In this document: piece after piece, positions 4,906-43,740 of the stretch
Position numbering within the stretch: position 1 is the first letter of the stretch
How the letters are laid out: each line of letters opens with the position of its first letter
Virus record (IMG/VR): IMGVR_UViG_3300029023_000077
Strand: one strand, 5' to 3'
Source: a virus
Length of the DNA stretch: 64,000 bases
Made by a program: the position numbers and the translations under genes
Notes under the pieces: model-generated
The model's input: the letters and a program-made list of their open reading frames with translations, nothing else
Databases searched by the model: none
What the model was told of the DNA's origin: nothing

Positions 4906-5971
4906 CCTTTTGTTCGCAGGTGATTTGCACAAGAGGCATAAAGACATATCAACCATCGAAGGGTATGTGAAGTGTACGCATGCGGTACAGGCTCAGTTAG
5001 AACGTGTAATTCAAGATCGGCATGTTGATTACTTTATAAGTCTCGGTGATTGGTATGATAAAGGGTATGCTGCTGACATATCAGCTGCATTATCTGACTG
5101 TGATGCTGATATTCAGATGTCTAAGGTCTTGAATGGTAACTTCTATGGATTGATTGGAAACCATATACGATTGAGTATGGATTCTAATCCGGAGTTGCAC
5201 TTAATTCAACCGCATGCCTATTTGAGAAGCAGGCAGCCTGTTACACGCAAGGATCAAATCATACACACACCTGGAATGTTAAGGATAAATGACGTACAGA
5301 TATCATTCCAGCATTATGATATGGGTTTAAGTAGTGTGGCAGATTACAAGCCTAAGAGAGAATCTTGGGCAAAGTACCACATTGCATTATTCCATACACC
5401 ATTAGTTGTGCCGGGTTATAAGTTAATCGACACACAGTATGGTTACAATATCTCATCCAATAATGATATTGCTTATACATTGGAGAATGTAGATTTGGCA
5501 ATCTGTGGTGATATACATAAACCACTGGGACAATTTGATATTAACAAGCCAAATGGCACAAAGACTGTTATGATTGTGCCGGGCTCACTTACAAATACAG
5601 ACGCAGGTGATGCAAATCGCCATGCGTCTATTTCTATGCCTTTTATTCAGATAGGTCTTAATTCTGAAGTTAAGATTCAGTATATTCCGTTTGACTTGTT
5701 AACTAATACGGTGACGTTTAAAAAGAAGAATATTGAACAAGCACAGGACAAGATGAAAACGTTACGTGGTAAAAGTTTAGAGAATCTGTATAACCCTGAA
5801 GATGTTGTGGCGGCTCTAAGTCACAGAGAAGATACACTCTTATCACTAAATGCGTTTATGGAGTCTAAAGGGTACACTCAAACTGATAAACAGCTTATTC
5901 TGAGTGTAATGCAAAATCCAGAGGATATTTTAAACCTAGTGAAGATATGGCAGGGTGAGAAGATCGTATAG
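4883..5971 (+). CDS. calcineurin-like metallophosphoesterase, SbcD/Mre11-like nuclease
   Basis: Motifs GDLH, LGDWYDKG (GDxxD), IGNHI (GNH) in canonical order. Confidence 0.7.
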   Translation: MTENYWTNLLFAGDLHKRHKDISTIEGYVKCTHAVQAQLERVIQDRHVDYFISLGDWYDKGYAADISAALSDCDADIQMSKVLNGNFYGLIGNHIRLSMDSNPELHLIQPHAYLRSRQPVTRKDQIIHTPGMLRINDVQISFQHYDMGLSSVADYKPKRESWAKYHIALFHTPLVVPGYKLIDTQYGYNISSNNDIAYTLENVDLAICGDIHKPLGQFDINKPNGTKTVMIVPGSLTNTDAGDANRHASISMPFIQIGLNSEVKIQYIPFDLLTNTVTFKKKNIEQAQDKMKTLRGKSLENLYNPEDVVAALSHREDTLLSLNAFMESKGYTQTDKQLILSVMQNPEDILNLVKIWQGEKIV

Positions 5972-5989
5972 TAGGAAGGAGAAATTAAA

Positions 5990-6328
5990 ATGGATATAAA
6001 AGCTGCTGCTGAGAAATACAAGAAGTGTCAGGAAGATTTCATCTCCATGAGGACTAAGGAGGAAGTTATGCTTAACACATTCTTTGAGAGGATACGTTCC
6101 ATAAAGGAACCAATCTTTGAAGGGAAGGTAGCGATACCAGAAAATGCAAATCTCAAAACATTGGTGCCAGAATATTATGTGGAACATCCTAATCAGGAAG
6201 TTTTAGATGCACAAATTGATGCAGTTAATGAGATGCTTGATAAAATTAACGAAATTCTGGTTCTTAAATGTGAGGAGGCAGAAAAATGCTATTCAGAGTA
6301 TCAGGTGCTCGCTTCAGAGAAGCGCTGA
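5990..6328 (+). CDS. hypothetical protein
   Basis: 112-aa ORF with RBS GGAAGGAG. Confidence 0.45.
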   Translation: MDIKAAAEKYKKCQEDFISMRTKEEVMLNTFFERIRSIKEPIFEGKVAIPENANLKTLVPEYYVEHPNQEVLDAQIDAVNEMLDKINEILVLKCEEAEKCYSEYQVLASEKR

Positions 6329-7299
6329 TAGGTGTTGCAGGAGTTGGAACCAAGAAACCTGTGAACCTGACATTTACGCCTGGGTCTTTAAGGATTCAGT
6401 CGAGTAATATCATTATTGTAGAGGAAAACATTGAAGTGCTTGAGCAAGACACGGATTATGAATCTTTTTCTGCGACAATGAATAATACAGTGGATCTAAT
6501 AGATAGTGATGAAGTGCTTAACATTGCAGTAAATGGAGACACTATGACCTTGAGTCAAACGCTTCTGAATTATACAGTTGGTCGGGAATATGCAGAAGCA
6601 ATAGAGTATAAGGAAGTTTCTAATGACTATGAGCAGATTGACAGGAATCAATTAAGCAATATTGTCAAAGATATACGAGCTATAGAGCTTATAACTAAAA
6701 CACTTGGTAAAGATGCATTTGCAGTCTATGTTTATAATGGCAGGTGCTTTATAGATGGACAGTGTATTGCCTATGAAGCTCCGTTAAATCTGCCGAATGC
6801 TGGTGTTACAAATAAGGTCCTTAAGGAACTTGTACGTGTTTGCAGGGGCAATACAAGTGCTTGTGTACAGGATAAAGTTTTATCTGTGAAATCGGCAAAT
6901 AAAAGGATTTTGGTTGCGACAGATGTAGTGGATATGCAGCATGTTAAAGTGCTGCAGTCTATATCTTCAAATATGAAATTACTCACAAGTAATTTTGATA
7001 TTAGTCCGTACACAGGTATATTGGAGACATTCCTAAAGGTGTATAGTGGTTCTTTAGCAAATATCACTATTGGTGAAGATGGCATGTTTGTATTTATGGA
7101 TAATGGTGAAGCTAAAGTTGTTGCGGGTAAACAAGTTGATAGGATTTGTTCTATTCAGCTGTCTATGCAACAGGCTGTGTGTATGAGTCATATCATGGGA
7201 TCTCTAGGTGGAATAGATATTTATGGAGGTAATAATAAAATATGCTTAGTACAGAAGAGCAGCAACAAAAAATTAACTCTTGCAGGGAGCGTTTATTAA
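6286..7299 (+). CDS. hypothetical protein (weak resemblance to sliding-clamp N-termini)
   Basis: 337-aa ORF; MLFRVSGARFREAL... start resembles DnaN/gp45-type clamps, only by eye. Confidence 0.4.
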   Translation: MLFRVSGARFREALIGVAGVGTKKPVNLTFTPGSLRIQSSNIIIVEENIEVLEQDTDYESFSATMNNTVDLIDSDEVLNIAVNGDTMTLSQTLLNYTVGREYAEAIEYKEVSNDYEQIDRNQLSNIVKDIRAIELITKTLGKDAFAVYVYNGRCFIDGQCIAYEAPLNLPNAGVTNKVLKELVRVCRGNTSACVQDKVLSVKSANKRILVATDVVDMQHVKVLQSISSNMKLLTSNFDISPYTGILETFLKVYSGSLANITIGEDGMFVFMDNGEAKVVAGKQVDRICSIQLSMQQAVCMSHIMGSLGGIDIYGGNNKICLVQKSSNKKLTLAGSVY

Positions 7300-7901
7300 G
7301 CGCTATCGTGCAGGCGAGTGAAAGAACTGATATTGGGCGTAATAATGAAAAGAGGGCGCAGAGTCTGGATACTGAGTTGGATAATTATATTAAAGTAAGA
7401 GATACTGTTCGAGAGGTAATTAACCACATCTCCAGCATGTATAAGAATATCCAAAAATATGCTGATGACAGGCGGGAGCTCTCGATGGAGATGTTAAAAC
7501 TGGCTATTGCAAAAGCTGGATATATTGTTCCGGATGCTGCCATTGATAATATTCATTTGGAAGTTGAAGATAAAAAAGCCTGTATTGTAGACAATGAAGG
7601 TATTGATGTGAACCTGAAAGAAGGTTCAGCTTACCGTACAGTCATGAGTGCTTTGATTCGGTACACATTACTCATGGAATTGCCAGATGCTATAAAGATT
7701 ATTTTCTTTGATGAGGCTTTCGGCACATTGAGTGAAGAAACTATTAACCAGATGAGGGAGTACTTTAGTGTATTTCAAAAGGATGTTGCAATTGTAGGTA
7801 TTGAACAGAGAGACTCATTGTTCCAGGGATTGCCAAAAGTGAAATTTATTGCGACTAAAGATGCTGATGGTACAACGACAATCAGACAGGAGACGTTATG
7901 A
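7242..7901 (+). CDS. SbcC/Rad50-like ATPase, C-terminal half
   Basis: IIFFDEAFGTLSEETI = SbcC Walker B/D-loop (cf. LFIDEGFGTLD); preceded by coiled-coil-like region. Confidence 0.6.
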   Translation: MLSTEEQQQKINSCRERLLSAIVQASERTDIGRNNEKRAQSLDTELDNYIKVRDTVREVINHISSMYKNIQKYADDRRELSMEMLKLAIAKAGYIVPDAAIDNIHLEVEDKKACIVDNEGIDVNLKEGSAYRTVMSALIRYTLLMELPDAIKIIFFDEAFGTLSEETINQMREYFSVFQKDVAIVGIEQRDSLFQGLPKVKFIATKDADGTTTIRQETL

Positions 7902-8641
7902 AAAAATTAAAAGATCTACTTAATACTAGGTATGTATATAATAGTTATCTTACAAAGCTGGATCAGGTGCTGCGAGAGATTACTGAAAATGAGAGGGAAT
8001 TAGATTTAGCTGAATGTAATTTTACACCACAGGCAGCTGGTGTAATTCGCCACTATTATGGAAAAATCTATTTTGTTAATTCGGCAGATGCTAGGTTAAA
8101 TCAGTTATTACTTGCAAATAACGGATGCCTGACTGCAAAAATGGAGAATCCACAATTGTTGAAATTTGATTTCAAAAATGTTGAAGAATTTAAACAGTTG
8201 TTGATGAGTCTTGATAAAACAGGTAACTATGTGCTGGCGCCTGGACGTGATATCGCTACTATCGCTACAGCTACAATCATTATCATGATGTACCCTAATT
8301 TGATGTTGGACGTAGATAACCGCATTGGTGAGATATTTAAGTTTGCAAGAAACGAATGGCTGAAGTGCAATGAACATCATGATGCATATTGGCTTGTAGA
8401 TAATACAGGACTTGTTAAATTACCAGTGGACGAAGATGGGTATGTCAAGCTCATTGATAAACGACTTGTAAAAGAGAGTGTTCTTGTGAAGTTATATAAT
8501 GTAATGCCGGTCGACTTTGGAACTAGAGTAATTATAAAGGATGATGAATTCCGTCCGATTTTCCAAAATGCATTAAGGGTGCTGGATACAAAGCATGAGC
8601 CAGAACGTCGTATGTTGGATTTTTTGGAGAGGAGAGGTTAG
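7898..8641 (+). CDS. hypothetical protein
   Basis: 247-aa ORF, start overlaps upstream stop. Confidence 0.5.
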   Translation: MKKLKDLLNTRYVYNSYLTKLDQVLREITENERELDLAECNFTPQAAGVIRHYYGKIYFVNSADARLNQLLLANNGCLTAKMENPQLLKFDFKNVEEFKQLLMSLDKTGNYVLAPGRDIATIATATIIIMMYPNLMLDVDNRIGEIFKFARNEWLKCNEHHDAYWLVDNTGLVKLPVDEDGYVKLIDKRLVKESVLVKLYNVMPVDFGTRVIIKDDEFRPIFQNALRVLDTKHEPERRMLDFLERRG

Positions 8642-8642
8642 A

Positions 8643-10781
8643 ATGAGTGATACAGAAAAGATTCTGGAGGGTATGGATGCTTCCTTGTTGGAAGTAATAA
8701 GGTCTATTGATGCAAGAACAAATAGCTACTCTACAAATGAGCAAGTTGCCTTTGCGTCGGATTTCAGAAAGCCGATGATTTCCTTCTCTAACCCAGGAAC
8801 AGGAAAGACACACAGTATTGTTCATGGTCTTATTGTTGCCCAAACTTACCATGGTATACCAGGAAGGCAGATTAATGCCATGTCGTTTACGGACGCAGCA
8901 ACTGCGGAATTAAGTATTAGATATAAGAAGGCATGTAAAAAGTGTGATATGACTCCTACAGTGCAATTTAATACATTCCATAAGATTTGCTGGAATATTG
9001 TTAGGGAGGCTTATCCTGACATGACTTTGACTGGAACTTTCATACGTGAAGAGGACTTGGAAATGTTACACGGAATTATGGAAGACAATGGTTATGTCGA
9101 AGATGATATGGCTCAGGTTAAAAGAATCTATGAGGCTATAGAGAAGTTAAATCACGCTCTAATATATGACCCGGATAATATCAGGGAATCATACACTTTC
9201 AATCAACTTGACTTGGATATGGATATATTCCAGGAGCTGCGTAAGGGGCTTTTTAGACAGAAACTGTTTGGAAGGAGCATATCAGTTGGTGATATTCCGC
9301 TGTATGCTCTTTTTGCTTTGTGCAAAAAACAGTTCATCGGCTCTAAATATAGGGGTATGTATAAAATCATGGTTGTTGATGAGTTTCAGGATATGACAAA
9401 GCTATATCTCGTTATCTTATCAATGATTAGTGACAATCTGATTGCCATTGGTGACATGAAACAGCAAATTTATGGTTACAATGGTGCGAGCCCCTACATT
9501 GCAGATTTATATAAGAAGATGTACCCGGATGCAAGAGAAGTACCGTTGACACAATCTTTCCGGTGTGGCAATGAGATTGCAGAATATGCGACCCGTATAC
9601 AGGAGCCTAATTATCCAGGTATTGTTCCATTCAAAGGAGTATCTGATGGTGCAGAGGTTATTATTAAGCCTGTATCTGAATTAAGTTTAGATGACATAGT
9701 GAAGAAAATAGCTGAGGATAACGTAAGTGCTTATACTACTGGGAAAAGATGGACTACAATGTTCTTATTTAGAAATAATTATTCCATCACACCTATCGCA
9801 GAGGCGTTGTACAAGGCTGGGGTAAAATTCCGTGTCAAGAATTTTGCCATGATTATGACAATGCCAATCTACAAAGAATTGTGCTATTATGCAGATATTG
9901 CTGAAAATCCTGAAGATATTGAGTGTCTGAAGTATATACCGTTCATCATGCCTCAGTTTGAAAAGTACAAAAAAGAGCCATGGCTCAATCCGGTGTATAA
10001 ATGTGCACAGGAGAAGCATGATAGAGGTGAGCATGTAAACTTCTTTGAACTACCAGTTAAGTATAATGAGGACAGCTTGAAGATCATTTCTGTTCTTAAA
10101 GGTGTAAATTCCCGTATGTTAGAGGGTTGTAAAGCAGACACTGTTTTCTCATTGCTTGAGCCCCTATATGATGAATATGTTATTAAGGGCAAATGGTATA
10201 CACTTCAAAAGCCTGTAGAATATTATACAGGCATGGTGCAGCCTATTGCAGAAAAGAAGACATATTCTGTTTTAAAATCTGAGGAAAGAGCAAAGCTTGC
10301 TTTTACAAATGATGCAATAAAATTGAATATGGGTGTTCGGTGTTATACTATGCACTCTGCTAAGGGTTTGGAGGCAGATGAAGTATTTATCATTGATGCT
10401 GATGATGGTACATTGCCTGCAACTAAGCGTGTAAATAAAATGGTAAGGTCAGGTTGTGCATTCGAAGCGGCAAAGACTGTGAGAGAAGACAGGAACCTAC
10501 TTTATGTCGCAATTACGAGGGCAAAGTCAAAAGTAACGATTACCTACAATGGGCAGATTACGCCATTACTTGGTAGTCCAATGTACAATGAGTTCTCTGA
10601 GTTGGATGAGGTATACACACAGGCACGTCAGGACTATGACGACATGAAATATTTTAAACAAATTACAAATATTCATGAACGCATAGAAAGATTAGATACT
10701 CCCGAGACATATATAAGTGAGGATGCAATTGGAGATTCAGATATTGGCGATAACTTTGGCAAAGGATTGGAGATGATTTAG
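8643..10781 (+). CDS. UvrD/PcrA/Rep-family SF1 DNA helicase
   Basis: Motif I NPGTGKTH, motif II VVDEFQDMT, FRCGNEI, motif V HSAKGLEADEV, motif VI LLYVAITRAKSKV; start ATG 8643 after RBS GGAGAGGAGAGG. Confidence 0.85.
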   Translation: MSDTEKILEGMDASLLEVIRSIDARTNSYSTNEQVAFASDFRKPMISFSNPGTGKTHSIVHGLIVAQTYHGIPGRQINAMSFTDAATAELSIRYKKACKKCDMTPTVQFNTFHKICWNIVREAYPDMTLTGTFIREEDLEMLHGIMEDNGYVEDDMAQVKRIYEAIEKLNHALIYDPDNIRESYTFNQLDLDMDIFQELRKGLFRQKLFGRSISVGDIPLYALFALCKKQFIGSKYRGMYKIMVVDEFQDMTKLYLVILSMISDNLIAIGDMKQQIYGYNGASPYIADLYKKMYPDAREVPLTQSFRCGNEIAEYATRIQEPNYPGIVPFKGVSDGAEVIIKPVSELSLDDIVKKIAEDNVSAYTTGKRWTTMFLFRNNYSITPIAEALYKAGVKFRVKNFAMIMTMPIYKELCYYADIAENPEDIECLKYIPFIMPQFEKYKKEPWLNPVYKCAQEKHDRGEHVNFFELPVKYNEDSLKIISVLKGVNSRMLEGCKADTVFSLLEPLYDEYVIKGKWYTLQKPVEYYTGMVQPIAEKKTYSVLKSEERAKLAFTNDAIKLNMGVRCYTMHSAKGLEADEVFIIDADDGTLPATKRVNKMVRSGCAFEAAKTVREDRNLLYVAITRAKSKVTITYNGQITPLLGSPMYNEFSELDEVYTQARQDYDDMKYFKQITNIHERIERLDTPETYISEDAIGDSDIGDNFGKGLEMI

Positions 10782-10782
10782 T

Positions 10783-11322
10783 TTGAGTGAAATTAGGACT
10801 ATTGCTGAGATAGAAAAAGACAATGAAAAGCTGTCTAAGATGTACGCTCAGAAGGTGGAAAAGAGTGCACGTTACACACATACTGTCATGGAAGATGAAG
10901 GTTGGATAATAGATCCTGAAGTTGCAAAACAGGTTCTAAAATCCATAAAGCCAGAATATTCGCAGATTGAATGTAAACGCTATTATTTTATCAATGATAA
11001 GTATGATGCCGCTATTGTTGGTGTGGACTCAAAGAATATTGGATTATTTACGGCTGATATACCAAAAGAGGTGGCAGTTGCAGTAGACGATCCATACACC
11101 TTAAAGGAAACTTTGAAAACTTTTGAGACAGCGAGCAGCAGTATCAAACGCATCAGGATTATTGGTAATACTGTGCTGATTATTATATTTGCTGCTATCA
11201 CGTCAGCTGTTTTTCTTTTCGTCGGTCGTACCAAAATTGCGCTGTATGCACTGATTGGATCGGCAGTTGCTGGACTGATTGTATCTTTAATAAATGTAGG
11301 AGGTTCTAAAGATGGGGTTTAG
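10783..11322 (+). CDS. hypothetical protein with C-terminal transmembrane helices
   Basis: 179-aa ORF (TTG start); hydrophobic C-terminus VLIIIFAAITSAVFLFV. Confidence 0.45.
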   Translation: MSEIRTIAEIEKDNEKLSKMYAQKVEKSARYTHTVMEDEGWIIDPEVAKQVLKSIKPEYSQIECKRYYFINDKYDAAIVGVDSKNIGLFTADIPKEVAVAVDDPYTLKETLKTFETASSSIKRIRIIGNTVLIIIFAAITSAVFLFVGRTKIALYALIGSAVAGLIVSLINVGGSKDGV

Positions 11323-11899
11323 AGTTTGCAATCTCGTAAACTTTTTACCAGCGTGTGTGAAAGATGGGAAACTTTATTGCGATGGGATGTTAGACAGGCC
11401 TATCCAATTACCAAAGGGTATTCCAGACTTTCCATTGCAGCTGAATCAGGTGAGCAAGCCAGGCATTGCGTGCTATCTTAAAAATGGTGATGGCATGGAA
11501 TTAGTACTTAGGTTCACGAAAGATGGCTGCTTAGTGCAGAATAAATATTTGCGCAGTAGCTTCATACTGGATGACTGGCCAGTTTTGTCATTGTACTCCG
11601 CAAATGTTGTAGCATTCGCTACTCATGCAGACGGTAGTGCCAGACCAGTCAGGCATTTAAAACTGAAACAGGGTGTTGATATCATTTCGTGCAGCGCCAT
11701 GCCGGTGACGGTACTTATGGATGATTATGAAAATTCTTTCTTAAATGCTTGTAACAAGAAAGGTGTGTTGACGGTTGTTTATCTAAGGCGTAAGGATAAC
11801 TATCTTGTTTATAAAGATACTGAAAGACTGTTAGAAGGTGTTCAATATCATGCGTCAGGTATGTGTACAATAGGAGGTTACGGTTATGTCAAAGACTGA
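11312..11899 (+). CDS. hypothetical protein
   Basis: 195-aa ORF. Confidence 0.5.
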   Translation: MGFRVCNLVNFLPACVKDGKLYCDGMLDRPIQLPKGIPDFPLQLNQVSKPGIACYLKNGDGMELVLRFTKDGCLVQNKYLRSSFILDDWPVLSLYSANVVAFATHADGSARPVRHLKLKQGVDIISCSAMPVTVLMDDYENSFLNACNKKGVLTVVYLRRKDNYLVYKDTERLLEGVQYHASGMCTIGGYGYVKD

Positions 11900-12482
11900 A
11901 TGCGTTTTAAAGATAAGTAATCATGCCGAGCCATTCTATACAACATTTGATACAGAGACTGGGTTTATGCGTGAACATTATGAGTGGATTGAATCGGTCT
12001 ATAATGTGATGAATGTTAAGGAGTTTGATTGTAGACCACATTTGCTAAAGAGCAAGGACATTCTCTATGAAGTGATACTAACCATAGTGAATGCTAGGCT
12101 TGTCATGACTTATTACGATGATGAATTGCTTGTAATAACTGATAGTAGTTGGTATTTTTGTAATGAGAATGGGCAAATGATTGGAACGCCACACTATATT
12201 CATAAATCATTAATTAAGGTTCCAGTTACGGATGTTGGGCGGGCGTTAACTTTATGTTATTCGTTTGATATTTTTCACCCAGCATCAAAATTGGCAACAT
12301 TTATTTGGAATGGTTTAACATATGTAATGACACGTCATGGTGCTAAGCTTGTGTCTGATGATATTCTACAGGCAGATGAAACTGTTCATATTACACCAGC
12401 AATGATCCTAGATTCTGGGGTTGATGCTTATGGTGCATATTCCGTTAATGGTGAAATCCATTATATCAAGAAAGAGGGTTAA
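11886..12482 (+). CDS. hypothetical protein
   Basis: 198-aa ORF. Confidence 0.5.
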   Translation: MSKTECVLKISNHAEPFYTTFDTETGFMREHYEWIESVYNVMNVKEFDCRPHLLKSKDILYEVILTIVNARLVMTYYDDELLVITDSSWYFCNENGQMIGTPHYIHKSLIKVPVTDVGRALTLCYSFDIFHPASKLATFIWNGLTYVMTRHGAKLVSDDILQADETVHITPAMILDSGVDAYGAYSVNGEIHYIKKEG

Positions 12483-12485
12483 AAT

Positions 12486-12689
12486 ATGGTTATTAATATT
12501 AGTCAGATTATAAAATTTGCGTTGATTTTAGTTGCACTTTTTGTTGTGGGCTACATCTTTGTTGTAGGCTTTAAGGGGAACTCTGAGGAGCATGGTGTTA
12601 CCTCAGAAAAATCGTCAAAGAAAGAGTCAAAGAAAGCATCAGGTGCATCAACTTCCACTGCTAGCGAGACAACAGAGAAGAAAGGTTAA
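12486..12689 (+). CDS. small membrane protein
   Basis: 67 aa, one TM helix then S/T/K-rich tail. Confidence 0.45.
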   Translation: MVINISQIIKFALILVALFVVGYIFVVGFKGNSEEHGVTSEKSSKKESKKASGASTSTASETTEKKG

Positions 12690-12694
12690 TCAAT

Positions 12695-13066
12695 ATGTTT
12701 GGTGTTAAAACTAAGTCAGACGGTCTGTCTAGGGCAGACATTTCAAGACTAGATGAAATCGACTTAGCATATATGAGAGCCTACACCTTAAAAACAATTG
12801 ACGGTCTGAGGGGGATGCTTGCACCAGCTTGTCTAGATAAAGTAGGCTGGCTGGTGCATAGTTTTAATACTAAGTATTTTGCAGACGATAAATTTCGGCA
12901 TACTGACTGGACAGTGATGAATATATCAGGTAATATATACACTCTGAAGAAGCAAGTGACATTTGATAAAATCCGTATAAATGCTGCAAGTAATTATTCA
13001 GAAAGATGGATCATCAGTAAGAAAAATGGTCTTATTGTAATGGATATTGAAGCATGGAATTCTTAG
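12695..13066 (+). CDS. hypothetical protein
   Basis: 123-aa ORF. Confidence 0.5.
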   Translation: MFGVKTKSDGLSRADISRLDEIDLAYMRAYTLKTIDGLRGMLAPACLDKVGWLVHSFNTKYFADDKFRHTDWTVMNISGNIYTLKKQVTFDKIRINAASNYSERWIISKKNGLIVMDIEAWNS

Positions 13067-13677
13067 ACGACAGGAGTACGATTCTGAATTTAGAGAAGTC
13101 TCTAAATTATACAGATATACGTATAGAAAATACTGGAAATTATTTTAAATGTCATAAATGCCCAGTTGATAGAATTGGAGCTAATTTAATGCTTGATTGT
13201 ATTGAAATTGAGTATGAAGGAGAGCTTGGGCTAATGTATGGTGGATTCCAAGATCTATTCACGTCTGCCGTTGTAGCTGGTCCAATTACACAACTGTGTA
13301 GTAGATTTACAATTGTTGTTAGTTTGCCTGACGATAATTATGACTCGACAGAGTTGCAGAAAAATGCTGAAATTGTACAACATATAAATGAGAGGTGTCT
13401 ATTTAAATTAGACATACGAAGGTTTCGGGAATGTATGTGCTATGAAAATATCAGGAATGTTTTCATACCTAACGCCCCGAAGCCTGTTTTATTTAATAAG
13501 TTGTATTTTGAAGATGTCTATAGGCTCCGGTTTGACTATGAAATACCACTTAAGGAAATAGATGTGATCATTGCACAGAAGGGCTGGAGTGCGACAAGGG
13601 CGTCTAAATGCTTGTATGACAGGCATTGGTTAAGTACGTATGATTGTGGTGTGATTCTAAAACCTGATGTTAGTTAA
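13054..13677 (+). CDS. hypothetical protein
   Basis: 207-aa ORF. Confidence 0.5.
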   Translation: MEFLDDRSTILNLEKSLNYTDIRIENTGNYFKCHKCPVDRIGANLMLDCIEIEYEGELGLMYGGFQDLFTSAVVAGPITQLCSRFTIVVSLPDDNYDSTELQKNAEIVQHINERCLFKLDIRRFRECMCYENIRNVFIPNAPKPVLFNKLYFEDVYRLRFDYEIPLKEIDVIIAQKGWSATRASKCLYDRHWLSTYDCGVILKPDVS

Positions 13678-13699
13678 TGTTATGTAGGAGGCATTATGT

Positions 13700-14197
13700 A
13701 TGGATTTGAAAGCTAAAAGTAGGGAGATTTCGGAAAGTCTTGTAAAGCTCAAAGAAGAACTTCATCAGACAAAAGAAACTATTCAGCAAGAGATGGAAAT
13801 GAACCTGCATGAGTTAAAGGACGCATCCAGTAAAGGTGACCGTTCTGAGAATGCAGCATTTACAGCAGCAACAGAGAAAGCGCAGGATCTTACTATCCAG
13901 CTTGCTAATGTTGAAAAACTGTTAAATGACATTGAGAATATGAAGAAGGAAGAGAAGTACCGAAACATTGGTATGGTTGTTTACTATACAACTGTATTAC
14001 TTTATGTTCCGGCTAAGAATAGGAGATTTGTATTGAAGTTGTACCCTAATGGTGTATCTGATATTGGCAAAGGCATTCTTGCACGTAACTGTGCAGTTGG
14101 TAAAGCTATATGGCAGAAACATAAAGGTGATGAGGTTTTTGTTATTGATAAGTGTACAGGCGAAGACCTGAAATATATTATTGAGGACTTTTATTAA
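13700..14197 (+). CDS. GreA/GreB-like transcript cleavage factor
   Basis: GDRSENAAFTAATE matches GreA tip GDLKENAEYHAARE (catalytic D/E kept); C-terminal SDIGKGILARNCAVGK...GDEVFVIDKCTGED matches the GreA FKBP-like domain. Confidence 0.6.
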   Translation: MDLKAKSREISESLVKLKEELHQTKETIQQEMEMNLHELKDASSKGDRSENAAFTAATEKAQDLTIQLANVEKLLNDIENMKKEEKYRNIGMVVYYTTVLLYVPAKNRRFVLKLYPNGVSDIGKGILARNCAVGKAIWQKHKGDEVFVIDKCTGEDLKYIIEDFY

Positions 14198-14217
14198 GAA
14201 AGAGAGGAATTCTAAAA

Positions 14218-16260
14218 ATGATTGAATGTACGAAAGCGATTGATGGGTTAGTAAGTGCAGCTTTTGGGAAGAATATGGTGACTATCTCTGATTTGAAGAA
14301 GATGATGGACAGATTTGCACTTGATCCTAAGGTATCAGAAGTAGCCAGAGAAGCATTCATTGTCAGTGATGTTGACCTGAACAGACGCATGCTCAAGGAG
14401 TTTGAAAAGAAAGCAGCGGCTAAGCATGAAGAGGTTGTCATTATTTTTGTAGCAAAGAAAGGTCCTGCACCATTCAAAGAAATGGCAGGTGTTAATGCTA
14501 TTTTAGAAAAACCGACACCAGAAGATTTGAGTAAAACAACATTCGGTATTATCGAGAGCATTACACAGAAGAATGGCGTTGTACCTATTACTGGTGTAAC
14601 AGATAGCGCAAAAGATTTTGTGAGACAGGAAGAACCAGTTGATCTTGATGTACTTACAGATGAATTTGGTAACCCACTGGAATTTGACCTTAACCGGGTC
14701 GTTGAGGACGAGAAGCCACAGGAAGATACAGCACCGATTGACGTTCCTGTTCCTACTTTGGAGGAGCAGCCAGTTCAGGAAGAGCCGCCAGTCCAGTTTG
14801 ATAAGCCTGAGGATCTTGTTGACCGTATCAAGATGTGCGATAAAGTTAAGGACATTAATATCTTGACACGTGAGCTGACAGCTACAGCTGTCATTAAGGA
14901 GATGATCAAGTCTTCAGCAGACTACACAGGAATTGAAGAACGTTTGAAAGGGCTTAATGAGAAGATTCAAGCAGTATATCTTGATACAACAATTCCTGAG
15001 CAGGATAAGTTGGATAAGGTTCGTGCTCTACTCTATGATAAAGGTTATTACAGAACAAAGACTAACACTATTATTGAGCAGCGTGTAGAAGAGCTTATCA
15101 AGACTATTACTGACCGGACAAGAGAATGCTTGGATAAGCGATGCCAGGAATTAGAGAGGGCAATCGTTAATTATTCATCAGGAGTAAAAGCTCCTTTGGA
15201 TACTGCCAGGGTGTCTAGCCTGATTGATGATCGTGCAAACATTCTTCTGGAAATTACAGCTTTGCGTGAAGAAGTGCAGAATATCTATCTTAAGGTAAAC
15301 AAGTTTGCAGGTGATGCTACTGCTAATATTCTTGAAGACAGTGTGGTTCGCACAGGAAGCCCATTAATTGATGCTCGTTTAAGGTTAGCTGGAGATACTA
15401 CAGTACCTGAGCAGACAACAGAAATCATTGAGAAGATTTTAGAACTGTCAAGTACTAAGTCTGAGGAGTTTAAGGAAGCAAATAGAAAATTAATCATTCT
15501 TACACAGAAGTTGCAGACTGTTATGAATTTAGACAAAGATTTGATTGACGCCCTTACGCAGGCTGTTGAGCTTCTGCAGAGTAACAATATTGAGGATCGT
15601 ATCGTACAGGAGACACTGCTAAAGAAGTCACTTAGGTTCTTTGTGGCAAAAGAAGGCAGTGGAAGGACTGTTATCCCATACATTTGCTCTAAGTTGAAGT
15701 CCAGGACAAACTGTAATGTGCTTTATGTGGATATCGCAGGTGATTCTAAGCTCGCAGATTATACAGAGAGTTACATGAGTCTGGATGATTGGTTAGGTAA
15801 TCAGTATCAGGAGCAGTTCTGTGCAGTAGTTGGTACAATCTCAAATACGCCAGAGGCAGCACAGCGTTTGCTTGTTGCCTTAACAAAGGCAGCTGACTAC
15901 TATCGTGTAATTAATGTTGTAATGAGTCCTGAACAGAAAGAGATTTTTGACATTCTTGTTCCAGATACGGTATGTGTTAATTATATCGTTGACCCTACAT
16001 CACAGTCACTTGATTTCTTTAAGGGCTATATCAAGGAGACTAAATGTGAAAATGTGGCTCAGCGTGTAATTATTAACAAGTGTATCCCTAGTACGACTAG
16101 TATGATTCTTGAGAAGCTGGATCTTATCATGAATGGAGACGTACATGTCGTTACAGTACCGTATGAGCCTCTGATTACGGAATGTAGTCTGCGTGGTGTT
16201 AAGCCATATGAGTTGCAGGTCGTTACAGAAGCATTCAGAGAGGTGTGCAAAGTATGCTAA
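14218..16260 (+). CDS. large hypothetical protein with acidic, proline-rich linker
   Basis: 680-aa ORF; EEQPVQEEPPVQ low-complexity segment; RBS AAGAAAGAGAGG. Confidence 0.55.
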   Translation: MIECTKAIDGLVSAAFGKNMVTISDLKKMMDRFALDPKVSEVAREAFIVSDVDLNRRMLKEFEKKAAAKHEEVVIIFVAKKGPAPFKEMAGVNAILEKPTPEDLSKTTFGIIESITQKNGVVPITGVTDSAKDFVRQEEPVDLDVLTDEFGNPLEFDLNRVVEDEKPQEDTAPIDVPVPTLEEQPVQEEPPVQFDKPEDLVDRIKMCDKVKDINILTRELTATAVIKEMIKSSADYTGIEERLKGLNEKIQAVYLDTTIPEQDKLDKVRALLYDKGYYRTKTNTIIEQRVEELIKTITDRTRECLDKRCQELERAIVNYSSGVKAPLDTARVSSLIDDRANILLEITALREEVQNIYLKVNKFAGDATANILEDSVVRTGSPLIDARLRLAGDTTVPEQTTEIIEKILELSSTKSEEFKEANRKLIILTQKLQTVMNLDKDLIDALTQAVELLQSNNIEDRIVQETLLKKSLRFFVAKEGSGRTVIPYICSKLKSRTNCNVLYVDIAGDSKLADYTESYMSLDDWLGNQYQEQFCAVVGTISNTPEAAQRLLVALTKAADYYRVINVVMSPEQKEIFDILVPDTVCVNYIVDPTSQSLDFFKGYIKETKCENVAQRVIINKCIPSTTSMILEKLDLIMNGDVHVVTVPYEPLITECSLRGVKPYELQVVTEAFREVCKVC

Positions 16261-17648
16261 ATCTTGATGGTTATTTGGATTGTAATAAAGTCCTAGACAT
16301 CAATAGGTATACGAGTCTTAGATTTGCAGATTCACGTGTATTTAAAACGCCAGAGGCATTGTCTTTATATGAGCAGAATTACATGCTTGCATCGGATATT
16401 AAAAAATTGTGTGAGAAAGAATATGGTCTTGAGCTGTTTGAGCCAAGACCATCTTTTATACCAGATGATATCATAAATCATTACAACGGTTCAGGTTATG
16501 TACCTATAAAGTATGAACCTATGAAGAATATCTTGTTGTTGATGTATCTGCCTGAAGTAAAAACATTAGAAAGTCATTACCCTAATGTGCATATTGAGAC
16601 TAAGCCAACAACCATATATTACTATATGAAATATTATCAGAAGTATTATGGTGTTCACAGATCTCTGCGGGATATTCCAGCTAAGATGTTATTTGATTTT
16701 GTTGTAAAAGAAGCTATTGAGAAAGATGCTGCAGATATTACGATTTCAAATACTGGTAAAGCCACAGTTGTATATTACAATATACGCAAGCGGAAGGTAT
16801 GGTCAAACTATTGCTTTAGCCAAGAAATCATGGGTGACATTATAAAGTTTATCACTATAAGCTCACCATTAGACAGAGGGTCTCGTAAAGCTAAGGCTTT
16901 AGATATCGATTTAAATGAAAATTACCGTGGCAGAGTCATGATAAATCAATCATTTAAAGGCATGACTATTACAATTCGTGTTTTACCAAACGCAGCATTC
17001 TCTACTGATATAACAGAGTTAAATTTGACAAAAGAAGCCGAAGAGTGGATGTTGGATAATATTCTTGATATGGAGAAAGGGCTTCGCTTGATTGTAGGTG
17101 AGACAATGTCCGGGAAAAATACAGATGCTTTGTCCCTGTTACAGCGATTAGTAGAGACAGACAGGTATAAGATAGTGTCCGTAGAGATACCAGTGGAGCA
17201 AGAATTGCCTGGTGTTGAACAAATTAATTGTGATACGCCGGACGATTACTCAAACAACATAAAATCTTTAATCAGAGTGAATCCAGACTTTGTTTACATT
17301 ACAGAGATGCAGGATGCTACTGCATTAGACACTATTAAGATAACTAACACAGGTAAATGTGTTTTATCAACAGTACATGCAAACTCTGTCGGGGATACTA
17401 TCGTGAGGCTGATGGATATGACAGGTTTGCCTCAGGATAGAATTGTACAAACTTTGCATTCTGTAGTGTATCAGGAACTCGTAAGAGATGACTCTAAGGA
17501 TTTTGTATATCCAAGATGCCGGTATGTTCGTTTCACGCCTGAGTTGAAGTACCAGCTTTATGGGAAACCACTAGGTGTGATGTTAAAGATTATTCAGGAT
17601 TATGAGGAGGGGGATGTATGGACATCTATTCAGCATTTGGCACAATAG
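16245..17648 (+). CDS. GspE/PilT/VirB11-family traffic ATPase
   Basis: Walker A GETMSGKNT; Asp/His boxes RVNPDFVYITEMQDATA ... TGKCVLSTVHANSVGDTIVRLMDM as in PilT/VirB11. Confidence 0.65.
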   Translation: MQSMLNLDGYLDCNKVLDINRYTSLRFADSRVFKTPEALSLYEQNYMLASDIKKLCEKEYGLELFEPRPSFIPDDIINHYNGSGYVPIKYEPMKNILLLMYLPEVKTLESHYPNVHIETKPTTIYYYMKYYQKYYGVHRSLRDIPAKMLFDFVVKEAIEKDAADITISNTGKATVVYYNIRKRKVWSNYCFSQEIMGDIIKFITISSPLDRGSRKAKALDIDLNENYRGRVMINQSFKGMTITIRVLPNAAFSTDITELNLTKEAEEWMLDNILDMEKGLRLIVGETMSGKNTDALSLLQRLVETDRYKIVSVEIPVEQELPGVEQINCDTPDDYSNNIKSLIRVNPDFVYITEMQDATALDTIKITNTGKCVLSTVHANSVGDTIVRLMDMTGLPQDRIVQTLHSVVYQELVRDDSKDFVYPRCRYVRFTPELKYQLYGKPLGVMLKIIQDYEEGDVWTSIQHLAQ

Positions 17649-17887
17649 ACAGATCTGTTTTACAGGTTGTTAAGTCATTAATATCATTGGAGCCAGTAAA
17701 AGAGGAAGAGCAAGTAGATATGATCCGTGTTACCGAAAGTCCTCTTGTCCTTACAAAAGACATTATGGTGACAGGAAAAGTTGTGACAGCGCACAACCTG
17801 CACCAGTATAAGAACAATTTCTATAAGTTAAAAGTGACTGAGAATATTGAATGTCTGCTTGATGACTTATTAGAAATTGATGAGTAA
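17618..17887 (+). CDS. hypothetical protein
   Basis: 89-aa ORF. Confidence 0.35.
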   Translation: MDIYSAFGTIDRSVLQVVKSLISLEPVKEEEQVDMIRVTESPLVLTKDIMVTGKVVTAHNLHQYKNNFYKLKVTENIECLLDDLLEIDE

Positions 17888-18497
17888 TGGAGGTTGTATG
17901 TTAGAATTTGTTGCAATTGACTCACATAACCAGGTAGTGAACTTTACTCTTGAAGACTGTCCGGTCTTTCTAAATGAACGTCAGGTGATTTTAGCAAAGA
18001 CCGAAGGGTCTAACTTGATATATGCACACACAATAGTTAGACGTGATAAAACTGAGCGTGTAATGGAAGGAGATAAAGTTTTTATAGATAACCAGTTTGT
18101 AGGTATCGTTATCTATAATCAGGGGTTTTGCTTGCAAAAAAGTGATGGTACTTTAGAAAAATTTAAGAGATCCAGACATATATCAGTAAGAGTTGGTAAT
18201 TACTCTTCGATGCAAGAAGCTGTGCAAAGTTCAAATAGGCAGCCTATTATGTTTCGTTACAAAGAACGGACTTTCTCTATGAAAGCCCTGTTGTGTTATA
18301 ACAATGGTTTCGTAGTTGTCCATACATCAAATGACCACTATAAGAAAGTGTTGGCAAGTGATATCAGCTTAATGACAGGTGTAGGCAAATACTGTTTTGG
18401 CGATTTGACGGATGAAGGTGGCAGAATAGTCCTAAATCACTTACAGCCATGTGTTATGCTCAACAATAAAATCACAGAAATCAGCGAAGTAAATTAG
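17877..18497 (+). CDS. hypothetical protein
   Basis: 206-aa ORF. Confidence 0.45.
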   Translation: MMSNGGCMLEFVAIDSHNQVVNFTLEDCPVFLNERQVILAKTEGSNLIYAHTIVRRDKTERVMEGDKVFIDNQFVGIVIYNQGFCLQKSDGTLEKFKRSRHISVRVGNYSSMQEAVQSSNRQPIMFRYKERTFSMKALLCYNNGFVVVHTSNDHYKKVLASDISLMTGVGKYCFGDLTDEGGRIVLNHLQPCVMLNNKITEISEVN

Positions 18498-18510
18498 GAG
18501 GAAAGAAGAA

Positions 18511-19665
18511 ATGAGAAATGAGATTCGTGGTATTGCGGTCGATAATGGTGGTAGTGAAGTAAGAGTGATGGATGGTATGAATCCTGTATTAGAAGACATG
18601 ATCAAGCTGAAGAATGATTTTGTCTCTATCAAGGAGAAGGATTTCAGGGTAAAAGAGGTTGCTGAACCTGCAAAGCTTTGTAGGGTATTGGAAGCGCCTA
18701 ATCCTGATTTCATGGGAATCTTTGCACAAGGTTTGACAGGTAAAGCATATGAAGGTCAGGTTGTGGCTATTTCCAGCCAGAAAGAAAAGACTGCTGACCC
18801 AAATTATTATAAGCAGTTTATATTTGCAGTGGCACAAGATGCATTGAAAGCTTGGATTCAGTCAGGTGGTTACTCTATGTACTCTAACGGTAACTCTGAA
18901 TCACAGCAGCACCCGGACATTGCTGATTCGTACGATTACTGTATTGTGGCTTGCATCCCTATTCAGGAGTTCAGCGGTGCAAAAGATTGTGCAGGATTGT
19001 TAAAAAATACGTTGCAGGGTCATTATGTTGTAGAGTTTCCATTGTTAGATAAGAAACCTGTGATCTCTTTCAACATTAAAGCTGAGTTTATGGGTGCAGC
19101 ACCTGAAGGTGGTATTGCTGTTAAGGCTCTGAAAGATCAGTTAGAAGAAGATGATATTTCCTTATTGGTTGATATGGGTTGTGTTACAACAGATATTGCA
19201 TTATTTCAAGGTACACATCTCTTAGGTAGGGTGTCATCTGTTAAATTTGCAAGTAGTACATTAGTTGCAAATATTCGTGCTGTATTGGCAGATGAAGGCT
19301 ATTTCGTGTCAGAAGCACAGGCTGAAAATGTACTGATTGCAAAACGTGTTAAGGATGGTCATGAGTCCGTAGATGTTTCTGCCATTGTAGAGGAGCAGAG
19401 CCGTAATTTTGTTCGTAACTACTTACAGAATGAGATAATTGGTATCCTTAATGCAAATCATGTTAATGCAAGACAGGTTCAGAACTTTGTGCCAATAGGT
19501 GCTTCTTTTAATAACCCGGAAAGTAATGCACTTATTTCAGAGATTGTTGCTTGTGCTAATTTACAGAAAGCAAAGCTCTGCATTCTTGCTGACGATTTAC
19601 GTTATGTGAATATCCAGCAGGCTAGTCGTTTTGTCAAGAAGTTTGTTAAGAAAGCAAAGGCGTGA
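18511..19665 (+). CDS. actin-like ATPase (ParM/Alp family)
   Basis: Phosphate-1 GIAVDNGGSEVRV and phosphate-2 LLVDMGCVTTDIALF motifs of actin-fold segregation ATPases. Confidence 0.55.
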   Translation: MRNEIRGIAVDNGGSEVRVMDGMNPVLEDMIKLKNDFVSIKEKDFRVKEVAEPAKLCRVLEAPNPDFMGIFAQGLTGKAYEGQVVAISSQKEKTADPNYYKQFIFAVAQDALKAWIQSGGYSMYSNGNSESQQHPDIADSYDYCIVACIPIQEFSGAKDCAGLLKNTLQGHYVVEFPLLDKKPVISFNIKAEFMGAAPEGGIAVKALKDQLEEDDISLLVDMGCVTTDIALFQGTHLLGRVSSVKFASSTLVANIRAVLADEGYFVSEAQAENVLIAKRVKDGHESVDVSAIVEEQSRNFVRNYLQNEIIGILNANHVNARQVQNFVPIGASFNNPESNALISEIVACANLQKAKLCILADDLRYVNIQQASRFVKKFVKKAKA

Positions 19666-19671
19666 GGTTAA

Positions 19672-20055
19672 GTGCAGGTTTTGATAGATATTCCACGATC
19701 GCTATCAAAGTATATTGAGTATGTACCAGAGGAAGACCTACCTGCTGTAATTTTGCAGGCACTTGAAGACAAGATTAAATCAAATGGTCTTATGCCGCCG
19801 GATACTACTCAAGACAAGTTAGATAGTATTCTGTCTATATTAGGTGATATAAAGAGTGGTGCTCCTGTAGTTGTACAGGAGCATTATTCTTTACCTCAAA
19901 ATACAGAAGTAGTTGAGATACCTGCTGTAGAAGAGAATGTAGTACCACAAAATATTGTAGAGTTCAAACAAACTTCATTCAGCAGTAATAATAATGATGA
20001 TGACGATGAAGATGATGATGATGATGATGATTTGTTTGATGACTTAATAAAATAG
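19672..20055 (+). CDS. small protein with poly-acidic C-terminal tail (possible ParR-like adaptor)
   Basis: GTG start; NNNDDDDEDDDDDDDLFDDLIK tail; lies immediately 3' of the ParM-like gene. Confidence 0.4.
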   Translation: MQVLIDIPRSLSKYIEYVPEEDLPAVILQALEDKIKSNGLMPPDTTQDKLDSILSILGDIKSGAPVVVQEHYSLPQNTEVVEIPAVEENVVPQNIVEFKQTSFSSNNNDDDDEDDDDDDDLFDDLIK

Positions 20056-20068
20056 GAGATTAGTAGTT

Positions 20069-20689
20069 ATGGATATTATACCTCAAATACTGACTGAAGA
20101 TATGGCTAGTGCAATGACAAACTATCATTTGGAGCTACTAACAAAATGTACGACAGATAGGGTTATGGATTTTGTATTGAGATATTTAGAAAGTCCAGAT
20201 GCAGATCCTACCATTAAGCAACGGCTTAGTACTGCTTATGATTATATCATAAAGCGTAATGAATACCTTAACTCTGAAGAGACAAAGCAGAAGAGTGAGC
20301 TTTTACTGAATACTACCTATAACTCAGTGTCAGTTGCATTGACAGTCAAGCAGCTTCGGGATATTCAGGAAGCGATAGACTATATAACGAAAAGCGAATA
20401 CGCAGTCCCTTATATATCGACTGTGGGAAGTTCTGAGCTCGCTGAGTTACGGCAGGAATTGAAAGAATATACTAAAGATAATGGAAACTATCAGCTGAAA
20501 GTGTTGTTGAACAATTTGCAAAAGTATGGCGATCTATTCAGGGATGGTAGAGATTCTCAGAATAAGGGAACAGTTGTGAAGAAAGTTGTTCGTAACATGA
20601 CAACGTATGAAATCATTTCAAGAGGTATTGATTTCATTATTGGCGTAAAAGAAAGTGGCAAAACTTACCAGTCTTGGAGGTTTTTATAA
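20069..20689 (+). CDS. hypothetical protein
   Basis: 206-aa ORF. Confidence 0.5.
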   Translation: MDIIPQILTEDMASAMTNYHLELLTKCTTDRVMDFVLRYLESPDADPTIKQRLSTAYDYIIKRNEYLNSEETKQKSELLLNTTYNSVSVALTVKQLRDIQEAIDYITKSEYAVPYISTVGSSELAELRQELKEYTKDNGNYQLKVLLNNLQKYGDLFRDGRDSQNKGTVVKKVVRNMTTYEIISRGIDFIIGVKESGKTYQSWRFL

Positions 20690-21666
20690 TGAATTTACAT
20701 TTGTTCGATACATCCGAGTATATCTATAGTGGGTCTAGGAATTTGTGGATTCTGCGTGGTGGTATGCAAACTGATTCAGGTTATGTTGATGCATCACTGC
20801 CATGCGGAAGTTTGGCGTATGTCCTAAACACGTTTGAAGAATGGGGTGGAGAGAATGAAGTTCTTGTTCATTGCATAGACAGCCTACCCACCTACAAAAG
20901 AGCTTTACATGAGAAATACTTTTCTGGAGGGTACAAAGGTAACAGATCTACACCAACGCCTGAGATTACTGTTCAGAAAAAGATGGTACCAGAGATGCTT
21001 GAAATGATTGGTGCTAATACTGTGACAGCTCCTGGCTATGAAGCTGATGATATTATTGCATCTATTGTTAAGTATTATCATGATGATTTTGAAAAGATAT
21101 ATATTCATGCTGCTGATAGTGACTTGTTCTACCTTGTTGATGAAAAGGTTGAAATATTGCCGCTAGCAGGTGGGTTCGATTCTTTGCAAAAAAATTATTC
21201 AAACAACAAAAAAATTTCACCAGGCAGACATATATATTTGGAGAATTGGAAAAGTGTTGTAAGAAAAGGAAAAACTTGTCCTAGAAATGTTTTAACACTT
21301 TTTAAAATTTTAGATGGCGAACGTGGCGACAACGTACCCGCTGTATCTTATGAGATGGGCATGAAGATTGTTGACAGTATTCCGCATTCAGAGTACCCCT
21401 TATGTGGAGATAATGAATATCTCAGGGAGAAGATAAAGATTGCTGTAAACAATGATGAAATGGTAATGGCTGTTACTGATTTAATAATGCCAGTTATTCT
21501 GCCATTTAAAGATGTTGAAATTTTTGAATCTGATTTGGATATGACAAAATTCATGAATATGGCAGCTCTTTGTAAATGCAAATATGCACATTCGTGGAAA
21601 TATACAGCCAATGAAGAATGTGAGGCATTTATTAATAAGTATTTGCAAATTTATCTTAATGATTAG
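20689..21666 (+). CDS. FEN-family 5'-3' exonuclease / flap endonuclease
   Basis: GYEADDIIASIV and HAADSDLFYLV match Pol I 5'-nuclease/T5 exonuclease motifs; ATG 20689 with GGAGG 8 nt upstream. Confidence 0.65.
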   Translation: MNLHLFDTSEYIYSGSRNLWILRGGMQTDSGYVDASLPCGSLAYVLNTFEEWGGENEVLVHCIDSLPTYKRALHEKYFSGGYKGNRSTPTPEITVQKKMVPEMLEMIGANTVTAPGYEADDIIASIVKYYHDDFEKIYIHAADSDLFYLVDEKVEILPLAGGFDSLQKNYSNNKKISPGRHIYLENWKSVVRKGKTCPRNVLTLFKILDGERGDNVPAVSYEMGMKIVDSIPHSEYPLCGDNEYLREKIKIAVNNDEMVMAVTDLIMPVILPFKDVEIFESDLDMTKFMNMAALCKCKYAHSWKYTANEECEAFINKYLQIYLND

Positions 21667-21680
21667 GGAGGTGTTAATTT

Positions 21681-22094
21681 ATGAGTCGTATGGATAATCT
21701 GAGAAACCGTTCAAAGCTTTCTCAGGAAATTTATGACAAAAAGGTACAGCGTGCTTATTCCGCTGTAAAAGACTATATGAACAGTGAAACGTCTATGTTG
21801 ACTATTGCAAGGCGTGTTGCTGATACAGATTCAGGCAACTCTGCAGATATTGCTAAGTTTTCGCAGGAGATTGCTACATGTGTTACAGATGCAGTGCTTG
21901 ACCCTGTACAGGAATTTAGAGATGTATGTAATCTGCGTGGTTATACTGAAAAAGAGATTGAAAGTATTGTGCAGAATTATTCAAGACTGTTCCAGCTTGC
22001 TGTTGATGGGACGCTTGAAGAGAAAACTAAGGCAGTTGCAGAATACTTACAATATAACAGACCTTTGTATGAAGACTTGGAATGCTACAAATAG
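21681..22094 (+). CDS. hypothetical protein
   Basis: 137-aa ORF with RBS GGGAGGTG. Confidence 0.5.
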   Translation: MSRMDNLRNRSKLSQEIYDKKVQRAYSAVKDYMNSETSMLTIARRVADTDSGNSADIAKFSQEIATCVTDAVLDPVQEFRDVCNLRGYTEKEIESIVQNYSRLFQLAVDGTLEEKTKAVAEYLQYNRPLYEDLECYK

Positions 22095-22180
22095 CAGTTT
22101 TGTGCAAGAAAAGTAGATTATTTTAAAAATAATTTATGTATTTTGCCATATTAAAGTGTAAAGGAAATGAGGAAAAGGAA

Positions 22181-22726: not shown

Positions 22727-22727
22727 G

Positions 22728-40736: not shown

Positions 40737-40738
40737 TT

Positions 40739-41338: not shown

Positions 41339-41353
41339 TAAGGAGTGTTCAGT

Positions 41354-41590: not shown

Positions 41591-41679
41591 GACTGTCTTA
41601 TTAAGGAGAAAGAAAACTCTTAAAACTCTATACGGAGTTTAACTCTATATCTTCCTCACAATAAGGCAGAGGATCTCAT

Positions 41680-43716: not shown

Positions 43717-43740
43717 AGTATTTTATGAGGGGGTGTAATT

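Follow-up and report, generated by a model that had tools for sequence, protein, structure and literature searches.

Giant extrachromosomal elements of a deep lineage carry a divergent Gre factor as an ancient core gene. The gene lies in the window, a 64,000-nucleotide (nt) stretch of virus record IMGVR_UViG_3300029023_000077, where the open reading frame (ORF) at 13,700–14,197 (+ strand) encodes a genuine GreA/GreB-family member that is not a cellular GreA equivalog. The product is probably a functional, divergent secondary-channel factor for RNA polymerase (RNAP), maintained as a core gene of a lineage whose contigs span 350 to ~630 kb. While this kind of protein and its probable mechanism are already well known, a large, divergent, element-specific Gre clade serving as a core gene of an unclassified giant-element lineage is new, and in the literature library that we searched Gre factors have not been described as core genes of huge phages or giant elements.

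The gene is intact and its product retains the acidic tip of Gre factors. A first-pass annotation had called the ORF a Gre homologue whose coiled-coil tip and C-terminal domain (C-domain) align with GreA, and every sequence, profile, and fold test that we ran agrees with that call. The ORF stands as drawn, running from an ATG at 13,700 to a TAA that ends at 14,197 and encoding 165 residues. An AGGAGG Shine–Dalgarno (SD) site, read off the sequence at 13,686–13,691 (+), lies 8 nt 5′ of the ATG, and the flanking same-strand genes are spaced 22 nt and 20 nt away. The GDRSENAAF motif reported at the tip is likewise present, as residues G46-D47-R48-S49-E50-N51-A52-A53-F54 (13,835–13,861, +). Alignment with GreA and GreB retains the acidic tip residues, placing D47 and E50 at GreA positions D41 and E44. 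The annotation also offered two roles, rescue of backtracked host RNAP or competition with host secondary-channel regulators, between which these sequence and fold data do not discriminate.

Sequence comparisons place the protein within the GreA/GreB family, defined here by Pfam PF03449 and PF01272. The GreA_GreB_N model matches residues 12–77 (29.4 bits against a gathering score of 24.5; E = 9.2e-07), and the C-domain model GreA_GreB (PF01272) gives a sub-threshold match to residues 92–148 (19.2 bits against 26.9), with precomputed PF01272 matches present in many relatives of the protein. The best NCBIfam model is greA (E = 1.2e-14, 54.7 bits); other greA models score 17.8–54 bits against cut-offs of at least 145, and the two greB models fall well below their own (27.9 and 23.2 bits against 188 and 171), so that assignment to the GreB subtype fails. 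A phmmer search of the PDB recovers Escherichia coli GreA (1grj; E = 1.5e-3), again with D47/E50 on D41/E44, and a profile built from 14 relatives recovers the same structure at E = 1.8e-07 together with a GreA/Gfh1 chimera and GreB. When a profile of 29 clade members is compared with one of 29 cellular GreA/GreB members, hhalign gives a match probability of 99.7% (E = 1.6e-26) over 146 columns; the match extends through both domains and keeps the tip in register. The reference sequences used for E. coli GreA and GreB agree with the 1grj and 2p4v stretches in the HMMER alignments. The existing label from the Joint Genome Institute (JGI) pipeline is also GreA/GreB family factor.

The predicted fold is that of a Gre factor. 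An AlphaFold2 model (predicted local distance difference test, pLDDT, 83; predicted template modelling score, pTM, 0.71) shows an N-terminal antiparallel coiled coil (residues 3–79; 13,706–13,936, +) made of helices 3–44 and 49–79, which flank the tip loop, then a linker modelled at low confidence and a globular C-domain of Gre type, rich in beta structure and presumed to bind RNAP (residues 92–165; 13,973–14,194, +). The top Foldseek matches in the PDB are GreA, Gfh1, and GreB (E = 1.5e-07 to 1e-05; template modelling (TM) score ~0.5–0.6), with TM values that are probably lowered by differing inter-domain orientation. These alignments cover ~150 columns including the C-domain, as does hhalign, so the C-domain claimed in the first-pass annotation holds despite its sub-threshold Pfam score, and prediction yields the coiled coil plus Gre C-domain that such a homologue should have. 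HelD N-domains and Rnk are lower-ranked matches. Rnk has a Gre-like C-domain and a much shorter coiled coil (PMC4598747), and its structure (3bmb) gives only a weak partial fold match (E = 9e-3 over 96 columns). From D47 to the end of helix 2 at residue 79 the window protein has 32 residues, against 34 from D41 to 75 in E. coli GreA (residue 75 being taken as the last residue of the aligned GreA N-domain); the coiled coil is therefore full length and not Rnk-like.

Conservation of the tip extends to every depth of relationship sampled. All clade members (29/29), at overall identities down to 32%, keep its G, D, E, and N unchanged, and in a 58-sequence alignment (identity down to 21%, a diversity too high for pattern scans) G46, D47, E50, and N51 are the sole invariant columns. 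Among the 141 best wider relatives listed from an exhaustive search, after removal of sequences already in the set, 123 carry GDxxEN and most others xDxxEN. A word-index search returned ~30 full-length relatives, every one metagenomic, and an apparent gap between the clade and cellular GreAs (E ~1e-11). The exhaustive search of 1.84 billion representatives overturned that gap, revealing a continuum with 53 matches at E ≤ 1e-30, 493 at E ≤ 1e-10, and 4314 at E ≤ 1e-3. The best cellular matches are at most 33% identical to the clade and taxonomically scattered, which argues against recent capture from a host. Clade signatures include a “KLYP” strand and a terminal D-x-Y. A subgroup of orthologues of 250–320 residues (P0186, P0183, P0187–P0189, P0197, P0200–P0211, and others) carries a ~100-residue insertion between coiled coil and C-domain and a GD[AS][SR]ENAPL[ED] tip; P0186 (locus L015, 10,001–10,873), the single long orthologue viewed in context, occupies the same syntenic position as the window gene.

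The Gre gene is an ancient core component of a replication module rather than an accessory passenger. Independent samples and assemblers yielded the identical protein, in the same context, on 169 contigs. Contigs with members of its 90% cluster reach 631,695 bp, and the window agrees with ENA contig ERZ27239532:k119_29866 (350,828 bp) over the three genes compared. The gene order UvrD … Gre – ParA-like protein of ~670 residues – T2SSE ATPase … FEN recurs in four distant relatives; their Gre proteins, one of them a 290-residue variant, share 34–47% identity with that of the window. The Gre gene diverges at approximately the rate of its neighbours, and together with its constant position in distant relatives this marks it as an ancient core gene of a deep lineage. 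Loci L001–L006 were retrieved for their identical protein and thus show zero amino-acid differences by construction, which makes a test for synonymous-only change invalid. The same data bear on the reading of the gene as a chance ORF, as a passenger in decay, or as mis-assembled host DNA. Although the sub-threshold C-domain match and the absence of any cultured or annotated member from the reference collections that we searched would fit such an origin, the recurrence on 169 contigs, full-length orthologues that keep the invariant tip and the synteny down to ~30% identity, and a strong SD site with operon-like spacing make it extremely improbable; a chance ORF or assembly artefact is effectively excluded.

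The protein most likely acts as a GreA-type anti-backtracking factor on host RNAP. By homology, its C-domain would dock on the secondary-channel rim of a bacterial-type multisubunit RNAP, most probably that of the host, and its ~75-residue coiled coil would extend to the active site, where D47 and E50 would contribute to holding the catalytic Mg2+ and promote endonucleolytic cleavage of backtracked RNA, allowing elongation to restart. The role of GreA D41/E44 and the binding of the C-domain to the β′ rim helices have been described (PMC7527559), as has the Gre mechanism of action (PMC4598747). Given an acidic coiled coil devoid of a basic patch, action on short backtracks, as by GreA, would be likelier than a GreB-type mode. 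Likely benefits would be that RNAP is kept moving on long element transcripts and that backtracked polymerases blocking element replication forks are removed. As anti-backtracking factors, Gre proteins limit the arrest of replication that stalled RNAP causes, and UvrD promotes backtracking (PMC13296718). The window gene lies inside the replication module, within a 20-kb co-directional block without terminator enrichment, and its adjacency there to a UvrD-like helicase suggests a role in avoiding transcription–replication conflict. A syntenic core Gre with an intact tip suggests more generally that very large extrachromosomal replicons need an anti-backtracking activity of their own, whether for long transcripts or to avoid transcription–replication collisions.

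Transcription signals in the window are consistent with this proposal, although the evidence is weak. Terminator-like hairpins show no excess at 4–24 kb (4001–24,000; 8 against 10.1 ± 3.0 expected) and a strong excess at 40–60 kb (40,001–60,000; 19 against 7.0 ± 2.5), where many small ORFs lie. The latter excess suggests use of bacterial-type intrinsic termination, and the profile as a whole is consistent with a long co-directional transcription unit at 4–24 kb.

One possibility is that the Gre protein is a dedicated part of element replication or genome maintenance, kept across the whole lineage because replicons of 350–630 kb with long co-directional transcription units could not replicate without active clearance of backtracked polymerases, and that it acts with or against the element’s own UvrD-like helicase or serves an element RNAP. 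Taken jointly, these proposals seem improbable to us. If true, they would describe an element-specific transcription–replication conflict system and not a generic host-like elongation factor.

The window protein shares its overall design with E. coli GreA (1grj). The two are of similar length (165 and 158 residues), combine a coiled coil with a globular C-domain, and share the G-D-x-x-E-N-A tip plus an aromatic residue in register with D41/E44; the C-domain motif S-P-V-G-K-A-L is kept in most clade members. By sequence and profile no match ranks above GreA, which is also among the leading fold matches, and its coiled coil is likewise acidic or neutral, unlike the basic coil of GreB. Differences are nevertheless extensive. 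Identity is only ~18–30%, helix 1 of the window protein has a 3-residue insertion and a different N-terminus, and the cellular R/K-[IL]-V-G strand is replaced by the clade’s KLYP, with the window protein ending in D-x-Y. GreA is a chromosomal gene, whereas the window gene belongs to the replication module of a giant mobile element. GreB (2p4v) shares the fold and an identical GDRSENA heptapeptide at the tip, but its large basic patch is absent from the window protein, and greB models score below greA models.

Several observations weigh against a working GreA-type factor on host RNAP. The 54.7 bits of the best greA match fall far short of the cut-off of 139 for the cellular GreA equivalog (TIGR01462/NF0012xx). 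The coiled coil is net acidic across the clade and lacks a basic patch: N-domain net charge is −6 in the window protein (11 K+R) and averages −4.1 in the clade, against −2 in E. coli GreA and +6 in E. coli GreB (18 K+R). GreA R37 and E47 are replaced by S and A, L21 is not conserved, and the R26–E59 pair is not retained. At GreA S121, S124, and P125 the clade has A/S, S/C, and P/A, respectively, and the window protein A128, C131, and A132. In E. coli GreA, S121P, S124L, and E59G cause binding or antipause defects, E59G by disrupting the R26–E59 pair and lowering antipause activity (PMC7527559). Judged from sequence, these C-domain and coiled-coil changes may reflect a different or co-evolved polymerase surface. 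Matches to sigma70-type promoters are at or below shuffle expectation in both the 4–24 and 40–60 kb regions, which makes that scan uninformative. An element-encoded RNAP is possible, the inspected DNA amounting to ~85 kb of an element of at least 350 kb. Finally, Gfh1 and Mycobacterium tuberculosis Rv3788 inhibit RNAP despite acidic tips (PMC4598747), and such a tip is thus necessary and not sufficient for cleavage. The same divergence (acidic coil, altered C-domain contacts, and ~100-residue insertions) makes the clade usable for dissecting RNAP-binding from cleavage features.

In a possible, if unlikely, alternative, the protein is a secondary-channel blocker or competitor like Gfh1, Rv3788, or DksA/TraR. 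It would bind host RNAP without stimulating cleavage, and would reprogram or inhibit host transcription, or exclude host GreA or DksA, to the element’s advantage. Members of the Gfh1/Rv3788-type class, defined by a Gre fold, a non-catalytic tip, and inhibition of all RNAP activities, share the fold of the window protein, and the Foldseek matches to Thermus/Deinococcus Gfh1 (3aoi/3aoh) equal those to GreA and GreB, so that fold does not discriminate between the two kinds. The clade’s loss of basic-patch character and of several residues that never vary in cellular Gre factors, among them the R26–E59 pair and, in the window protein, S121 and S124, would also suit a blocker. The tip argues otherwise. 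It is of the canonical GreA/GreB form, G-D-x-x-E-N-A plus an aromatic residue, and invariant across the clade, and the conservation of N51, A52, and F54 would be superfluous for a pure blocker. The tip of Gfh1 is an acidic cluster and is not known to carry G-D-x-x-E-N; the C-domain part of the Gfh1 sequence was checked against the 4wqt alignment. Whereas GreA, GreB, and a chimera carrying the GreA tip were recovered from the PDB with the 14-relative profile, no native Gfh1 was found there at E ≤ 1.

Precedent for element-borne secondary-channel regulators comes from another family. F-plasmid TraR and lambda Orf73 are such factors and act on host RNAP (PMC2613031, PMC9239242), and the toxicity of overexpressed GreA does not depend on its antipause activity (PMC7527559); both observations are compatible with a blocker. 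TraR and Orf73, however, are of DksA-type family and fold with a zinc-binding globular part (a single helix in TraR), regulate initiation and not transcript cleavage, and have no meaningful similarity to the window protein. The NCBIfam dksA model gives E = 0.066 and 13.6 bits against a cut-off of 115.5, and the protein’s only two cysteines, C131 and C152, rule out a Cys4 zinc finger.

A GreA-type role on host RNAP must also be weighed against service to a polymerase of the replicon’s own. Under this explanation, which we find doubtful, the element encodes a multisubunit RNAP, as some jumbo phages do, or is a much reduced cellular genome, and Gre co-evolved with that enzyme and not with host RNAP. 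The great divergence of the clade from all cellular Gre factors, its status as an ancient core gene, contigs that reach 608–631 kb and carry a tmRNA gene, and the small visible portion of the replicon are all compatible with it. Against it, no RNAP subunits, sigma factors, or phage structural hallmarks occur among the listed Pfam matches (one summary giving 25 of its 35 families) or PHROG matches for the window and its 10-kb flanks, though very divergent phage RNAPs could escape Pfam. None of the conserved neighbours is an RNAP part; they comprise a ParA/MinD-like protein and ATPases. As for a reduced cellular genome, only ~1/5 of genes have Pfam matches and ~4/5 have none, and no ribosomal or housekeeping genes were seen, a picture that does not resemble a cellular genome; short clade-specific peptide patterns found no clade member, and only ordinary cellular GreAs, in 185,579 GTDB species representatives, although distant members could escape such patterns.

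We also examined where else the clade and Gre genes of large phages occur. Nucleotide- and protein-level searches found no clade members among INPHARED phages or PLSDB plasmids, and none were detected in IMG/VR with short clade-specific peptide patterns, which distant members could escape. Gre genes are rare in reference phages, with matches in 20/50,697 records, mostly in host-like DNA. The one clear jumbo-phage case in that set is the “GreA-like protein” gp168 of Salicola phage SCTP-2 (MF360958.1; locus L014, 3821–4285), which resembles the window gene in being a Gre-like gene on a very large (440 kb) phage genome. Its GreA match, however, is confined to the C-domain, and its tip, SLSTEDESELGQF (...STEDESELGQF...), lacks G-D-x-x-E-N, a non-canonical sequence that suggests a non-cleaving secondary-channel factor. 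The window protein has no tblastn match in the INPHARED collection, and gp168 is therefore not a close relative.

The genes around Gre make up a conserved replication and ATPase block. A UvrD/PcrA-like helicase (8595–10,781, +; Pfam UvrD-helicase, 1e-28) is syntenic in loci L001–L006, L011, and L015, and a 5′–3′ exonuclease of FEN type (20,674–21,666, +; Pfam 5_3_exonuc_N) lies near the downstream end of the block. Immediately downstream of Gre, a 680-residue protein (14,218–16,260, +) is syntenic in every relative examined, and a T2SSE/ComGA-like hexameric ATPase (16,245–17,648, +; Pfam T2SSE, 5.6e-36; NCBIfam ComGA, 1.4e-33) overlaps the end of its gene. A metallophosphatase, an actin/FtsA-like protein, and a clamp-loader-like AAA protein are also encoded in the window; upstream of it lie a family-A DNA polymerase (PolA), RNase H, an RNase T-like exonuclease, an HD protein, and a DnaG-like primase. 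In locus L012 (1–1512, upstream of the window) the polymerase domain is on a 445-residue ORF directly after a Pfam-less ORF of 1032 residues, and the polymerase may be split or have a large novel N-terminal partner.

The block that follows Gre looks like a cytoplasmic ParA/ATPase/actin-like module and not a pilus machine. PDB sequence searches with three Gre neighbours returned no match. An AlphaFold2 model of the 680-residue protein (pLDDT 74) shows an N-terminal alpha/beta domain, a disordered linker, long coiled coils, and a C-terminal domain whose Foldseek matches are FleN, FlhG, ParA, and MinD (TM 0.6–0.7 relative to the targets). We had considered this neighbour as an RNAP subunit or other transcription protein and rejected the idea on the ParA/MinD/FlhG fold of that domain. 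Its Walker A motif is atypical (GSGRT; family consensus GxGRT). The module (14,218–20,689, +) continues past the ATPase with proteins of 89 and 206 residues, an actin/FtsA/ParM-like protein of 384 residues, and proteins of 127 and 206 residues. A pilus or secretion machine is unsupported, a hydropathy scan finding no membrane-spanning segments in the nine proteins of the block that it covered; the arrangement resembles a TadZ–TadA pair that lacks a membrane platform, and a role in segregation or positioning is possible. Gre is the only gene seen that relates to transcription.

The element itself belongs to a deep giant extrachromosomal lineage, known to date from metagenomes alone, that is either huge phage or plasmid-like. 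Its contigs (loci L001–L013 and L015) measure 350–631 kb. All real-looking genes of at least 120 residues in the window are on the + strand, GC content is 35–39% with a strongly positive GC skew throughout, and coding density is 92% under table 11. The standard genetic code is used; stop-codon recoding of the kind found in Lak-type megaphages was rejected since long ORFs end at all three stop codons. Identity with the published “Inocles” was likewise rejected on their description: Inocles have 24–32% GC and carry Pol III, gyrase, RecD, VirB4/VirD4, and the InoC marker, whereas this element has PolA, a DnaG-like primase, and UvrD. SD-like motifs precede 37/45 window genes, a frequency that we take to argue against a Bacteroidota-type host. 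ComGA is a competence ATPase known mainly from Firmicutes, and its standing as best NCBIfam match of the T2SSE-like ATPase is a weak hint of a Firmicutes host.

Further features of the window include RNA genes and putative conflict genes. A tmRNA gene at 41,680–42,076 (+) matches Rfam RF00023 over the full-length model (87.3 bits, gathering score 47), and ARAGORN predicts the tag peptide ATRRPMAIAA; SmpB was not seen in the window. A tRNA-like gene at 44,235–44,300 (+; RF00005, 44.2 bits, gathering score 29) lies within a 366-nt ORF-free gap, has an anticodon arm of 7 nt against 13 in the model, and was missed by ARAGORN and by a whole-window scan at gathering threshold. A cluster of conflict or NAD/ADP-ribose type (27,897–28,640, 29,480–29,989, and 37,810–38,616; locus L013, 21,307–21,797) comprises an AbiEii-like nucleotidyltransferase, a YpsA/SLOG protein, a microbial PARG, and, just downstream of the window, a DarT1-associated NADAR. 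DUF488, PilZ, and Band_7/SPFH proteins are likewise encoded.

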